A stretch of 64,000 bases of DNA from Botryllus schlosseri (lineage: Eukaryota): assembly GCA_051294905.1 (NCBI GenBank), contig CM119372.1, positions 1,364,001-1,428,000 on the forward strand, read 5' to 3'. This document shows, in pieces, positions 17,701 through 26,700 of this stretch; position 1 is the stretch's first letter, and each line of letters starts with the position of its first letter. The notes under the pieces are model-generated. The model was not told the origin of the DNA, made no database searches, and worked only from the letters and a program-made list of their open reading frames with translations. A program made the translations under genes and the position numbers.

Positions 17701-20700
17701 ACGTCAAAACGGTATGAGTGATTTGGAAATTTGTTGAAATATGTACCATTTATGCGATCGCAATGAATGCAATTTGCCTGATCCGACCAATCTAGGTTTC
17801 AAGGCTGGCACAGTTTAAAATGGTATTGTAGCGTATTTACATAACATGTCTGCACGATGATGACTTAGTAAAACCGAGATATGATGAGGATCTATTTTTA
17901 CTGGATCGATAGGCCTGAGTGCAGATTCTCACAAAAATACCTCGACTTCATTAAGGCCGGGCAAAATTGAGCGCCTGATTGACTCGCTTCCGAATCGAGT
18001 GCTGTGCGCGAGCATTCGAATGCCGCTTCTTTTAATGTCATACGAGCATGAATAATGTAGGAAACTAGAATATGTACCGTTTATGCGATCGCAATGAAAA
18101 CTCTGCCAGTTCTACATTCCGGGATAAGTTTGTATTTTTTCGACCAATGGCTTCACAGCTTTTCTAAATTAGATTACATTTAGAGTTATAGCTAAACAGG
18201 TTTTAACAAATTATATTGCATTTAAAATTACGGAGTTCCCAAAAACTAGAATTGAATTCAAGTCCGAATTTGAACGGAATTCAACAACATTCGCACTCCA
18301 CAGTTCTCGTGTGGCGTTCTCAGGAGAACCAGGAATCACGGATGAATTGAAATGAGGGCATAGAGGCATTTCACAATTAACATTAAGAATCGGATTACCT
18401 GATCCCGTACATCCCCAGCAGCAATTCCTTTTCCCCTTCTCAGGTCACCAGAGCGGAAGTCGACGTTCAACCGTACGCCTTCACCACCAAGTCGTTATTC
18501 GTCGGCCACATGGATTACAAGTATCTCAGATGGCAAGTCATCGACACTCCCGGCATTCTGGACCATCCCCTGGAAGAACGTAACACCATCGAGATGTTGT
18601 CCATAACCGCGTTGGCTCATCTCCGATCGGCCGTCATCTACGTGATGGACATTTCCGAACAGTGCGGGCAGCCACTGGAAGCTCAGCTACAGTTATTTAA
18701 CAACATAAAGCCGTTGTTTGCTAATAAGGTGAGCTGTCTGTGACTAGGGCTGGCCACGATGATTCGACTGTAGTGGTTAGAGATGGTTTTTCGGGTACTG
18801 AAATTATAGGGGATAGGAGACCAAGTTGAGACACTTTTCTGCTATTTCAACTCCACTCAAAGAGTAATGCCTTCTGAGGAATAATTTTGGTACCAATGGA
18901 ATGCCTGTGTGTACTATTTATGACTATCTCTTGAGTTACATTGAATAACATACTTTGGATTTCTTGGCCCTTGAAAATCCTTGCTCAAATGTCTCAACTT
19001 ACCCCCAGGTGAGGGTAAGATAAGACACAGTGTTCCAGATGAGACACCAAACATGCGGTGCTAACATTGCACTCTACCAGCTCCAGTAATGTAATTTTGT
19101 TTTATAATATGAAGTACTATGGTCGGTATGCCCTTACAAACACAAATTCACATAATTGACACAGACTATGAAAGTATAGTTTTTAGCATTTTTCTACCCA
19201 TCCTCAAATCTGTTTGCCCTGTTAATATGGTAGGACTATAGAATGACAATATGGGAATGACATAAATGAAGGAATCTGTCCATCAGAAAATTGTTCTATG
19301 AAAAAATTGCATGTCTCATCTTGGCCTCCTCTCCACTACACGCCTTGGCAGTAAAAGTTAGTCTATGTTGCAAATTTGGTTTCGCTATGTCCTTCAATTT
19401 GAGACAACATCGTTTTTAGAGTGCAGTGCCCCTTTAACTCTTAGTGCTAAGGAGCGTATAATTTCAGTACTCGAAAAAATCACGTCTCACTACCCGACTC
19501 GAAGCATTGAGCCCAGCCCTAATCGCTACTTCATGACTCGCGATGCACGATGATGATTCATGAAATCCGAACAAAACATGAGGATTCGTTTTCATTTGGA
19601 TCGATAGGCCTGAGTGCATTTGCCACGTCGCGAGATACTGTCGTGTACGCATTGCTGTTGAACCACGCTGGAGCCGAGTTCTCTGTGTCTTTCAGCCACT
19701 TTTTGTGATGGCCAACAAGATCGATATTATTTCGAAAGAAGATTTGAACGCGGAAACGAGTAAAATTTTTCAAGATATTGAAGAGGGCGGCGTGCCCGTT
19801 TTTTGGACTAGTACAGGTAACATTTCATCGGGCTAAAGTTGTACCAATAAAAAATTCTCAGCTTCTTCCAAATTAAGATTATAAGTAGAATTATTATATT
19901 CACCAAAGTTTGAAAATAAATTCAATCCTGAATTAGGAGGAAATATACAACAAAAAGCAAGTTCAATTCACATCAAAACAGAGTTCGTTCTCATAAGCAC
20001 GAGAACGGCAGCTGTCGGTGTGCTCTTGAACTGTAGCTTTTTCTGGAACACAGCGTAGAATATCCACTGAAAGATTCGAATTTATTAATATAATATTTCT
20101 ATATATATATTTAATAGTAAGATAGTACATTTTTAATGCCTAATTCGCTGGAAATCTTTTGTGGCATTACTGTGATTTTGTTTTGATTAATTTCCTAACG
20201 TGACGTGTAATGGATTTTGCTTGGTACAGTTACCGGCGAAGGTATCATGGAGTTGCGGGAGGCGGCTTGCGACAAACTCTTGCTGCAACGCGTTGGCGCG
20301 AAAATGAGAGGAAAGAAAGTCGGTAACGTTCTGAACAGGCTGCGCGTGGCTCAACCGGCACGCAGAGACGACAAGGTGATCATTTTTTTCCAGTATTGAA
20401 TTTTTATGTGGAATCAATGTAGCTTACAGTATGTACTTTTTCAAATTTTGAGATCCACTTTTGAAACCTGAAATTTGCAAAATGGACATTAGCTACTTCT
20501 ATTCTCCCGCAACGATATTTTTTGATACGGCTGTTGGCATACAAAATCTGCGAACCTAGTTTGTGTCGACAGAACGAGTTCTTGTATAATCTAAAAAATA
20601 GTAGGCTACAGTGTCAGCCGAAAATATTTGGCTTTATTTCAAAGTAATATGTATATTATTCCATTGTATACCTTGTGGATGTCTGCACGATGATGAATTT

Positions 20701-23700
20701 GTAAATCTCAGAAATGATGAGGATTATATTTACTGGATCGATAGGCCTGAGTGCAGATTGTCACGATAATATCGAATTCATCAAATTTTGCATCGATCGT
20801 CTTCAGAACCGCTGAACCTTTTTCATTACTCAATGTCGGGGCAGGGGCGGCCAACCTGCGGCCGTAGAAGGAAATTTGTGCGACCGTGGACACGTAATTC
20901 AATCAGTATGTGTTGGCCGCCGTCGACATGCAGTTGGAATTTACGAATTGACTCTCGAATTTCTTGAGAGATTTTGACTGATCTTGAAATTTTCTTCGTG
21001 CTGCGCGCGATTCAATGTGAATTCATTTTTGGATGTTCATATATAGTAGCGGCCTTTCCAATCACCGCCCACAGTACAGATTCGAACAGCAGAGGAAAAT
21101 GAAGCGCCCCATATTAAAATATGAACTAGCAATTGTGTGCTCCTCAGTATACCGACAATCCTGATGGGAGATCAAGAAATAACGACATGCAACAAAGTGA
21201 CTAATAACAATTGGCCCACCCGAAGACGCATCATCATTTATAACTTGCCCTAAATTTTTGAAAACACCCCCCCCCCCGTCCATCAACTTCACAAGTCAAT
21301 CTGGTCACATTGACTAAGAAAGGATAAATGTTTGATAGAAATGTATAAAACACTAATATTTATGACGAAATTCATTAGTGAAACTGAAAATAACTCGCGA
21401 CTTCGGTGCTTATAGTAAGCCTACACCCGTAACAGACACTTTACATGGGTATTTGGTGTCCAGCTAGCTCATTACGACTATGTCCTGAAATGCGGCCGTG
21501 AATGTCAAAAAGGTAGTCCACTTCTGCTCAATCTACCTAATATATATAGAACAATCTTGAGGGTGTGCGTTGCGACCCGTGCCAAGTGACGATGGTTTTA
21601 GCCTAACACTTTTTTCACCCCGGTTTGCTGTATTTTAGGCCCGACCTCCGTGCATTCCGGCCAGCGTCCTGGCCCGGCGTGCCGCCGCAGCCAACGGAGA
21701 GGAATTGGACCCATTGCTTGGCGACGAGCCGGTCGCCATGGACACGGAAGGAGGGGCCAAAACGAAAAAGACGGAGCGAGATTTGGAGATCGCGATGGAG
21801 GAGGAGTATATTCTCAACTTGCAGAGTAAGAGAATGTTGCCTTAGACTAGGACAACTAAAACGCTGCTGTTCGACCTATTTTTGGAGTGGTGCGCCCTAC
21901 AAAGTTGTAGCTCTGACCGATGCACCCCCCTGTCAGGTCATAAATAGGCTGGGCAAAATCGAGGACCTGAGTGATTCGATTCTGAATCACGTAAAATGCT
22001 TTGAGTCAAGTCGAGTATCACTCATTATGATGTCACAACAGAAGGTACTATGTCAAAGTTCAAATATGCACCTTTTATGCCACCACGAAGAACCTAATGC
22101 CTGTTATCCGTCACATTAACGATACTTCGGCCAATCAAGGTTTCATGGCTTCATCAGTGGAAAATATAGTATCAAACCAATAATTCTCATTAGCAAATTA
22201 ACTTTCAGTTGCGAGGAGCGTATAATTTCAGTACTCGAAAAAATCGTATTTTACTACTCGACACGAATCATTGAAATTAATACTCGATTCACGTTCGAGC
22301 ACTCGAATCATTGTGCCCAGCCATAGTCATAAACTGAGTGCGTCAGCTTCAGTTTCATCTGGCTCCCCGATATCAGCCCGTTACAGAGACTGAATTTGGA
22401 TGGGCAAAATGTTTCGCATATGCACCCTTGACCCTTGGGTCTACCACGCACACTGGCTGAGCAGCAATGAATTTTTAATTTTAGTAGCGAAATGCCAGTA
22501 GTCTTCGACAAAATTTTCAGGTCCTCCAATTTTGATTAGAATTAGAGTAACAGTTGCACGTTTTTTCCAAATAAGGTCAATCCAAATGTAGAGTAACAAA
22601 TACAACAAAAGTTAACTTTAAGCTTTTCTGGTTTCATGAACTAATTAGTCAAAAATGTTGAACATTGCGGCTCGACTGTTCTATTGAAATTTTATTCTAT
22701 TTCTTTTGTTGTTACGGAAGTTTTTTGTGGCCCCCATGAAAAAGCCTCAGCCATGCCCCACAGGTTGGGAACCCCTGCGCTGCACAGTTCTGTAGCCTTG
22801 TCAGGATAAGCAAACATTGGATTAAAATTCAAACCAAGAGCATAAAACATTCCGCAAATTTGATTAGAATTAGATTACCCACATTTCGCTTCAACTAGTG
22901 CAATTAGACAGCTAGAATTATCGAATTCGAGTCGAATTTGTCGGGAATTTTATTTTGTATTTTTTTCTGCCGCCTGCAGAATGGTGGGATCTCAAGAATC
23001 CGGAAGAGAAGGAAGACGTGCTGCCAGAGATTTGGGAGGGTCACAATATCGCGGACTTCATCGATCCCGAGATCATGCACAAGTTGAAGGCCTTGGAGAA
23101 GGAAGAAGAGGAGAGAGAAGAAGCCGGACTTTACGATAACGACGAGGTGGGCTACTTTGCTCGCTTTGACGCTATTTCGCTATTCCAAAGAATAACATAG
23201 CGATCAAAATCAAACCATTTTCGGCGGACACATTCAGGGTAATCATTAGCATTGCAGAAAGCGGGTTTGAAACCGGCACGCCCCCTTTATGATAGTGAAA
23301 AATTTCACCCCAGCCTGCCGTGATATCACAAGATACCGAAGGGAGCAATCAGAATGTTTGCAATCCCAACGGATAGTTTGATGGCATTGGGTGTTATGGC
23401 CGTAGACGAGAGAATTCTCAAAAAAAAATGTCAGTTCACTGTGGCTTAGCGCTCCCCCCCCCCCCCTTCAGACGCTTCCACGCCCCCAGTTTGAGAACCA
23501 CCGACTTGAAAAGCCTACATGTTATGCCTCTAAATCTGTAAAAAGATAGAAAACGCCATATGAGTGTCAAAGTACATGAAGTAACTTTGTTACGACGTGA
23601 AATTTTGTCGCAGCTCGTCACGAGACTTAGGTAAATCCAATCCTAATCCCTCAAATTTCCAAAATACGGTTTTCTCAAATCCTGACCCGTGCTCATCTCT

Positions 23701-26700
23701 GTAGCATTGGTAGAGAATTGAAAAGTGCTTTGCATGCCAACAATCTCCGGGATGAAATTTGAATAACGAGGGCGGACAGATGGCTTCAGCTCGATGTACA
23801 ATTTTTAGATTGTACGCGAACTATTTTTGATGCCATACACTAGGTTTGTGTAGTTTGATAGAAGTCGACTCCAAGGCACATAAATAAACGTGTCTCGCTG
23901 AAGCGAAATCCATCGTCTTGTTGGTAAATTTCTGCACAAATAGTATGAATCTTTGAATATTTGTCAATGGCAGAGTTCATAGTCATTGCCTGTTCCGATT
24001 CAGGCTTTGAGGGATGAGTCAAGGGCCGTCTTTTCTCTAGGCATTAGACCTGTGTACTAACGAATCTAGGGACATGCTGTTTGGTCCTGCAAACGTTTTG
24101 TTTTTCTACCTGCGTAACCACATTGTATCCATATTCATTGCCGTGTTGACTATTCTCAATTCGAATACTTTTCTGTATATCTAGTCTTCTGAGGATGAGG
24201 AAACCAAAGAGATTCGACAGCTGGCCGCGAGGATTCGCGAAAAGAAGAAACTGCGAATGATCGAGGGTCACGCAAAGCGAACGGTAACGCTTCCGCACCG
24301 CATATCTTTTATAGATTTTTCTCGTTTTCCGGTTGCATGCAGTTCTGTACTCGGAGGTGGGCAGTCAATAGACTGCTTTACTCTTGAAAGAGTTCTTGAT
24401 TAGCGTTGGCCACCTTGTACTGCTTGCTCGAGTGGATATGTTTGGCTACTCTCACTTCAGCTTGCCAATTTCTTGCGCAAAACTTACGACTTTTAATTCC
24501 AAGTAGATATGGTACGCGGGGCCAGTTGAAAATTGCATTTCTAGTTTTTAGGCAAAACTGCTTGCTTTCTGGATTTTAAAAAGTAGACAGTGGTTTTGGG
24601 GTGTGTCTACCTCACTTTAACAAGTGAAGTCGTTATAGCAACTGTACTTAATACCATTCCCTGTATCATGATGATTTTTTTTTTCGAAACTTTCATTGAT
24701 TTGAAGTGTCACACTTCGTCAAGCCGCTTTCTTTAGGGTGATTTGTCATCCTTTTTCAAGATATCACAATTATCCTCCTAGGATATCCAAGTGACCTTCT
24801 TTGTGGCTATTTGTCCTCGTAGCTTCGACAGCCACGCGGCTGCACAGTAGGGCGGTTCAAAAATAACCTTTTTTCCTGAATCTTGCTGGTTACTTGATTA
24901 AATCGTTAGGTTGCCTCAAAAAACGACGCACACCAAATTTGAATTCATTCCAACCAATATTCGCGGATTTCGTAGAGTTTGAAAATTTTTAATTTGCCTG
25001 AAAATGCAAAAAAAAAATTTTTTCCAATTTTCCCTCGATCCATATGAAATTGTTGCGCTGTCTTCAAAAACGATGGAAAACAAATTTGACTCAATTCCAA
25101 GCTGCAGAAGCGGAGTTATTCAAGTTTTTTGATGATAATTCTGGGATGATCCCTCAATCAAGGATAATCCCAGAATTATCAAAGAAAAACTGAAATAACT
25201 CCACTTCTACGGCTTCGAATTGAGTCAAATTTGTTTTGCATCGTTTTTGAAGACAGCGCAACAATTTCATGGGGTTGGCATAAAAATTTGAAAAATTTTT
25301 TTTTTTGCATTTTTAGGCAAATTAAAAATTTTCAAACTCTACGAAATCCGCGAATATTGGTTGGAATGAATTCAAATTTGGTGTGCGTCGTTTTTTGAGG
25401 CAACCTAACGATTTAATCAAGTAACCAGCAAGATTCAGGAAAAAAGGTTATTTTTGAACCGCCCTACTGCACAGGCACAACTGAAAAACGCCATAAATGA
25501 CGCGATATCACTATTTGGACGGCGAGGATCACTAAAAATTTATGTTGGACCTGGTCTTCCGGGAGTCGAGTTTAAGGAAATGACCTTTCTTGCTCAACGC
25601 GACATTGTTTCCGGTCAAAATTTTCAAATCACCCGATTTCATGAGTTTTGTGATTTGTAGAAAGTGCCCACTTTTCCAGATCGCAAAATAGGGTAAACCT
25701 AACTTTCCGCGACTAATCTTGACCACCTCTGTCTGTATTTCTTCAGCATGATTTCTCGTTTATTTATATGTTTTACGATTTGTCCACGAGTAGCATGCGC
25801 TGTGACGAGAACTTGCAACTGATATCGGGTTTGTGATGAGCATGTGGATCGATAGCTGAGATTGTGGATCGATAGCTGAGATTGTTATCAGATATACGCA
25901 TCATGAACCGGAGTTAAGACAACTAGAACATTTTTTGGCTTTACCAAATGAGATTGGCAATATGATGACAGCTACATTTTTTCAAACTAAGTTATGATTA
26001 GAATTACCGAATTCGTCAATGGTAATGGTATTGAATTTAAAATTGGAAGAAATACGACGAAAATCATGTTCACTTCATATCAAATCAGGTTTCGTTCTCA
26101 TCAGCACGAAAATGACAAATGTCTGTACGTCGACTGTCGAGCTTGGTTTGTTCCGTACGATACAGTCCTTACCAGAAATTAGATTACCAAAATTTCCTAG
26201 TTGTCCATGTCTGTCCTGAACTTGCTTTGCTTTGCTCTTACATTTGTTGTTTGCAGAGTTGCCTTAAACACTTGAATTTTACTTGCTTGCACGGTTCTAA
26301 TGCCGCTTCTTCGGTGTGATTTATCGACAGTTGTTGTTGAATGGTAGAAGAAAACATTCCAGCGTTTGTCGTTGCAGGTTGAAAAGCCGCAAGTTACCAG
26401 AAAAGTGACTTCGACGAATAAGACAGCTGGAGAAATCGAAAAGAAAATGGGAGAGCTGGGTGTTGATTTGAGAGGGCGACAGGTATTGTCGCCGTTCATT
26501 CTTCGTGTATCTGCTGACGTGTCGACTTCAATCAGTAGCACTGGTAGTGATACTCGCAGCGATATTTGGTGACGAGATATTCGTACAATATTGTTTCCCT
26601 ATCTTTACTACTTTGGTGTTGAGCTTCTTGGAGGTGCATGACTTTATTATCGAATTTAATAATACGTTCATAAATCCGAATATTTTCAGCGGTCATCGTC

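Follow-up and report, generated by a model that had tools for sequence, protein, structure and literature searches.

The fourth snoRNA-like element of the NOG1/GTPBP4 gene in Botryllus schlosseri (copy 4) has the anatomy of a box C/D methylation guide whose register on 28S rRNA has moved by two nucleotides, and we lean towards reading it as a decaying shifted paralog that would now be under relaxed selection. The element lies in a window of 64,000 nucleotides, which is the whole stretch of DNA that was analysed, and its anatomy, register, target sequence, and allele differences were read directly. For the alleles, 4 of 24 runs were compared over 25500-26600: X1, X8, and X15 (DNA or unlabelled contig sets), with one contig each spanning copy 4, and X23 (RNA). 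X15 is labelled organism B.

All motifs of a box C/D element (C, D', C', and D) were found in copy 4 on the + strand, and the original prediction of a fourth snoRNA-like element was borne out. Its features are as follows.

25790..25800, + strand: 5' arm of the terminal stem (25795-25800 in the register of copies 1-3; 25790-25798 in an alternative 9-bp register)
25802..25808, + strand: box C, GTGACGA, with one mismatch to RUGAUGA (fifth base C)
25809..25818, + strand: C-to-D' spacer of 10 nt, equal in length in all four copies
25819..25822, + strand: box D', CTGA (consensus CUGA)
25833..25839, + strand: box C', GTGATGA (consensus)
25845..25855, + strand: 11-nt antisense core, directly before the first box D
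25846..25855, + strand: D guide, 10 Watson-Crick pairs with 28S rRNA
25856..25859, + strand: box D, CTGA (consensus CUGA)
25863..25882, + strand: second 20-nt unit (guide and box D), with the second box D at 25876-25879; in the window allele only, among four haplotypes
25880..25888, + strand: position of the 3' stem arm, broken in the window allele by two substitutions (25881 and 25882)
25903..25906, + strand: ATGA in the window and a CUGA-type tetramer in X1, X8, and X15, an unlikely candidate for an alternative box D

Boxes D, D', and C' of copy 4 all match the consensus, and box C carries no listed change in X1, X8, or X15. As had been claimed from the window alone, the core lacks the GC that copies 1-3 keep ahead of box D, and the 20-nt module of guide and box D is duplicated exactly in tandem; Tandem Repeats Finder reported 25843-25885 with a period of 20, 2.2 copies, and 100% matches. 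Unlike in copies 1-3, the terminal stem of the window allele reaches 1 bp at best with either box D, leaving the C/D kink-turn without a closing stem. Whole-RNA folding gave z-scores of -2.3 to +1.5 over seven stretches and was not counted as evidence.

The element is intronic and codirectional with an expressed host gene. X23 RNA reads join the exons on either side of the intron, Pfam NOG1_N, NOG1, and NOGCT were matched in all three other exons tested, and the three sister copies sit in three other NOG1 introns, one each.

24284..26377, + strand: host intron of NOG1/GTPBP4, defined by spliced RNA reads (X23; loose ends at 26377 and 26483) and by the reading frame
17857..17918, + strand: sister copy 1 (box C to box D), predicted guide for 28S A3080, stem -9.5 kcal/mol
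19550..19613, + strand: sister copy 2 (box C to box D), predicted guide for 28S A3080, stem -7.0 kcal/mol
20690..20750, + strand: sister copy 3 (box C to box D), predicted guide for 28S A3080, stem -9.5 kcal/mol

The 11-nt core occurs in the window five times exactly and once with one mismatch, against a chance mean of 0.85, and none of 100 shuffles reached six. Outside the guide, copy 4 is identical to copies 1-3 at 7 to 8 of 20 positions (P of 0.13 to 0.29), whereas copies 1-3 agree among themselves at 11 to 17 of 20. It is plausible that copy 4 is a paralog of copies 1-3, a relationship that is not demonstrable outside the guide. Elsewhere in the genome, a 161-nt copy 4 query matched only itself, and none of the guide-pattern matches outside the window (1 + 15 in the 495-Mb assembly) had C/D anatomy; these 16 matches thus held no second snoRNA in the C register. 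Rfam gave no match in the window at the gathering cutoff, nothing on copy 4 at E values up to 10, and no family for any of the four copies. NOG1/GTPBP4 was not found as a snoRNA host in the literature searched. The same intron also contains a 313-nt inverted repeat (24840-25474; 92% complementary, with a 9-nt loop) about 320 nt before copy 4, which resembles a foldback or miniature transposon, and two short high-copy repeats (25640-25720 and 26040-26130). The latter attract most contigs and so explain the runs with a low share of sampled words.

The guides were scanned against the 18S, 5.8S, and 28S rRNAs of one rDNA unit from the same genome. Copies 1-3 pair with 28S over 12 bp, with the D+5 position opposite A3080, and would be three intact guides for this base. 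For copy 4, both D boxes give 10 bp with 28S and place D+5 opposite C3082. The original prediction that D+5 now points to a C two nucleotides from the site of the sister copies therefore holds on the genome's own 28S. No other site of at least 8 bp was found for the guides of copies 1-4 in 18S, 5.8S, or 28S. An antisense stretch of at least 9 bp with a paired D+5 is present in the window allele, in X1, and, going by its listed differences, in X15, and is lacking in X8. The target is exact in four of the five rDNA copies that were read, the fifth being a divergent fragment; 27 anchor matches were found in the genome. One locus with a 28S anchor match (L012, G000:C13 near 20.87 Mb) has unrelated sequence upstream and represents a short or divergent rDNA fragment.

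By an offset of 322, A3080 and C3082 are the equivalents of yeast 25S positions 2758 and 2760. This offset between the present 28S and yeast 25S was first placed from what we took to be the corresponding sequence context. It was then checked at anchor bases, which match the base types of PMC11014333 Table S4 in six of six cases.

Comparison with the other alleles separated the register shift from the duplication. The 2-nt shift is common to the window, X1, X8, and X15, and the two bases before box D are restored in none of them. The 20-nt duplication is absent in all three runs. Differences from the window at 25881, 25882, and 25903 are likewise found in all three; X1 differs additionally at 25845 and 25890, X8 at 25784, 25842, and 25871, and X15 at 25784, 25842, and two unlisted places. 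Over about 930 nt, 28 letters differ between X8 and the window. Since the shift is shared, and the duplication and the stem loss are found only in the window among the four haplotypes, the shift appears to be the older change.

In X1, X8, and X15, a terminal stem closing the C/D kink-turn can form, with 6 bp in the register of copies 1-3 or 9 bp when placed two bases out, at -5.4 kcal/mol compared with -7.0 to -9.5 kcal/mol in copies 1-3. Such a stem is rare by chance: 6 bp in the canonical register occurred at 2 of 2,082 intron positions and 9 bp at none of the 2,082. X8 carries a G>A change at the D+5 base (listed at 25871; contig depth, 81.9), which produces a mismatch to the target and weakens the duplex to -15.9 kcal/mol, compared with -18.7 to -21.9 kcal/mol; its guide has no substitute site elsewhere in the rRNAs. 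Thus, the X1 and X15 alleles have the sequence features of a box C/D member, whereas the window allele fails at the stem and X8 at D+5.

The original prediction had raised two possibilities for the duplication, namely two alternative 3' ends of the gene and a polymorphism or assembly artefact. Two functional 3' ends were rejected: the duplication is absent from all three runs, no stem forms at either box D, and both boxes aim at the same C3082. On the second point, the duplication, absent from the X1, X8, and X15 contigs, is probably a private allele, or else an assembly error, on a copy that is probably dead, and it is not itself a mechanism. Both repeat units carry the stem-breaking bases, which suggests that the duplication came last. 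In X8 and X15, a 9-nt stretch recurs exactly at a distance of 20 nt (4 nt at the corresponding position in the window), which fits replication slippage. A deletion of the 3' stem arm, considered because of a likeness to the flank of copy 3, was dropped since the other alleles show two substitutions.

In our view, it is unlikely that assembly introduced the duplication and the three private substitutions in error and that the shorter stem-bearing allele is the true sequence; such an error would bear on the duplication only and be compatible with either fate of the gene. The duplication was seen in none of the three DNA runs, the highest share of sampled words in any listed run was 0.88, and X1 is identical to the window along about 600 nt except for one 59-nt patch (five substitutions and the 20-nt gap), all of which would fit an error. 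However, at 25845 and 25890, two of the five positions where X1 differs, the window sides with X8 and X15, so that its patch cannot be derived from X1 by errors alone. In addition, two haplotypes are seen on both flanks of X1, and alternative paths are lost from its contigs; therefore, X1 cannot show the absence of the duplication. X1 may even be the assembled sample and would then give no independent support. Finally, the substrate for slippage is present in the natural alleles X8 and X15.

The guide pattern was also searched for in a metagenome collection, which yielded 120 matches in 114 loci, with the spacer classes expected to be about equal by chance. In the A register there were 32 matches, 12 of which had snoRNA anatomy (several near-identical, corresponding to about four or five distinct RNAs), whereas the C register gave 26 matches and none with such anatomy (Fisher P of 0.0003). 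The other 2-nt spacers gave 33 matches, 3 with anatomy, and the 1-nt spacers gave 29, 2 with anatomy. Guides for the A site thus appear to exist in other organisms, and matches to the C site are not in excess, in a collection that is poor in animal genomes and says little on close relatives. None of the 20 metagenome loci tested matched an Rfam snoRNA family. The A-register guides (L092, L103, L025, L028, and L080) share the antisense core and the predicted A with copies 1-3 and differ in where the core sits, ahead of D' in some of them and next to another guide in others. The C register is found in none of them, and none has an Rfam family. Locus L092 consists over its whole length (- strand) of four tandem double-guide C/D snoRNAs, and L103 holds a similar one; their D guide is directed at the same 28S A as copies 1-3 and their D' guide at the C equivalent to Arabidopsis Cm2837, with no Rfam match. 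Eight loci in three groups (L025, L027, L106, L028, L040, L077, L080, and L085) have an A-register core before a D'-type box together with a closing stem and are putative, unnamed snoRNA candidates.

Several observations point to decay. Critical positions are damaged in two of the four haplotypes: the stem in the window and the D+5 base in X8. The listed segregating sites fall on 3 of 44 constrained positions and 2 of 34 free ones (tallied by offset); the match between the classes favours decay over a working Cm guide, on tiny counts from four haplotypes in which both stem changes could reflect a single event and two X15 differences are unlisted. This comparison covers copy 4 only. We also counted for decay the mismatch in box C and the lack of a C-register guide in the metagenomes or of a second C-register snoRNA in the genome. 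Against this stand the consensus D', C', and D boxes, the nonrandom stem, and the 10-bp core, which are kept despite near-random similarity to copies 1-3 elsewhere. Their survival of drift suggests that selection acted for a long time, possibly before the slip. Of the two fates first proposed for the element, a new target acquired by slippage or a decaying paralog, the shift to the C stood, and the evidence leans to decay.

These same kept features are what a working guide would show. On that account, the common alleles would methylate 28S C3082, a site gained by the 2-nt slip, and the window and X8 alleles would be tolerated nulls of a dispensable mark; we consider this possible but not probable. 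In its favour, the shift is found in all four haplotypes, including X15 from labelled organism B, the duplex with 28S is perfect over 10 bp, and the 6- to 9-bp stem of X1, X8, and X15 (-5.4 kcal/mol), unlikely by chance, departs from that of copies 1-3 by one double change and two wobble pairs. There is also a human parallel, in that 18S Um172 (SNORD45A/B) and Cm174 (SNORD45C) are sites of one family that likewise lie two bases apart (PMC11014333 Table S4; PMC5027482 Table 2). This offset may itself have arisen by a register slip, but the rRNA and the site differ, and both human marks have been measured, whereas C3082 methylation is predicted. The damage in two of the four haplotypes argues against a working guide, as does a stem weaker than those of copies 1-3. 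The 3' arm in X8 and X15 also equals the sequence after box C' and may be an old local repeat rather than a compensation. Moreover, C-register matches are not in excess in the metagenomes (26 versus 29 in the 1-nt control class), and the site equivalent to yeast 2760 is absent from the relevant part of the table of six model organisms (PMC11014333 Table S4). It is rather doubtful that the stem-bearing alleles actively guide a lineage-specific C3082 methylation that originated in a 2-nt slip, and that functional and null alleles segregate at the locus so that the rRNA mark varies between individuals of one species.

We regard it as very unlikely that copy 4 is an independent snoRNA, or that it acts through its D' guide or through a frame from C' at 25833 to the CUGA at 25903. 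In favour of these readings, the similarity to copies 1-3 outside the guide is without significance, D' and C' are nearer the consensus than in copies 1-3, and the CUGA at 25903 is present in all three other haplotypes. However, the host gene, the 10-nt C-to-D' spacing, and the core are the same as in copies 1-3, and the spacer (25809-25818) finds at best 7 bp in 18S, 5.8S, or 28S and 6 bp in U1, U2, or U4. The frame from 25833 to 25903 was rejected, with a stem of at most 3 bp in the alleles that have this CUGA and no target above 7 bp. Pairing of the D' guide with U1 A71 was dropped as well (5 bp only), as was a possible likeness of 25886-25895 to U2 snRNA, since the U2 of this genome has a different sequence at that place and the longest pairing with any tested snRNA is 6 bp. 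A U2 snRNA copy without its 5' end was observed at L140 (G000:C14 near 25.70 Mb), one of several lower-scoring copies on C14.

Returning to decay, we infer paralogy, the order of events, relaxed selection, and a loss of expression as follows. Copy 4 would be the fourth intron-encoded box C/D snoRNA gene of NOG1 and most likely an old cis-duplicate of an A3080 guide. It would have been under selection for a long time before two bases were lost between guide and box D, a loss that would have moved D+5 from A3080 to C3082. With three redundant A3080 copies present, selection on copy 4 would now be relaxed. In the lineage of the window allele, the terminal stem would have been lost through two substitutions, after which short repeats spaced 20 nt from each other would have allowed slippage to double the guide and box D unit. 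The stemless allele, with its box D about 500 nt upstream of the intron acceptor, is predicted not to assemble a stable snoRNP.

This last step draws on other systems. In PMC5519232, snoRNAs remote from the branch point are described as able to assemble independently of splicing when they have long external stems, and PMC10234308 describes vertebrate snoRNA expression as predicted by box score and stem stability. By analogy, a stemless copy about 500 nt from the acceptor would probably not be made. Guide length should be sufficient, since 100 of 104 assigned Arabidopsis sites have a guide of at least 9 bp (PMC8053127), and that of copy 4 has 10 bp. X23 (150-nt RNA-seq, 6% read) had no reads at 25722-26017, with a depth of about 11 to 17 at the next exon, and is uninformative for short RNA. 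No RNA run was listed among those containing the copy 4 sequence.

In its layout, the locus resembles other intronic box C/D guides with cis-duplicated paralogs, having C, D', C', and D, an rRNA antisense element before D, and each copy in its own intron of a host gene involved in ribosome biogenesis, and it would be expected to work like an ordinary intronic methylation guide. The window allele differs in its absent terminal stem and in having no Rfam family. As reported in PMC2653536, cis-duplicated snoRNA paralogs in chicken gain or lose guide function by substitutions and indels. A guide register shift of the copy 4 kind was not found stated in the literature searched, as far as the accessible parts of those sources go. 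Within this part of 28S, the methylation mapped closest to C3082 is the lineage-specific Cm3298 of Drosophila (yeast 2765 equivalent), guided by snoRNA:Me28S-C3227a/b; its target lies five bases 3' of C3082 (C3087 here) and its host is Uhg5, with no homology shown. The sites equivalent to yeast 2758 and 2760 are unlisted for fly, human, yeast, Arabidopsis, Xenopus, and Dictyostelium in rows 175-179 of PMC11014333 Table S4 and in Table 1 of PMC8053127. The guide and target strings were not found in the supplements of PMC11014333 or PMC7671301, and the available parts of PMC6984369 and PMC11649923 contain nothing on A3080 or C3082, the planarian Dataset EV2 being outside this scope.

The 28S site predicted for copies 1-3 and for several metagenome contigs (the yeast 2758 equivalent) has no Rfam guide and is absent from the six-species table. 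If copy 4 is decaying, as is more likely, it exemplifies ordinary snoRNA birth and death. If the common allele works, the locus would provide a natural experiment on the birth and loss of rRNA methylation sites, in which a new site would have arisen two bases away from an older site and functional and null alleles would occur within one species.
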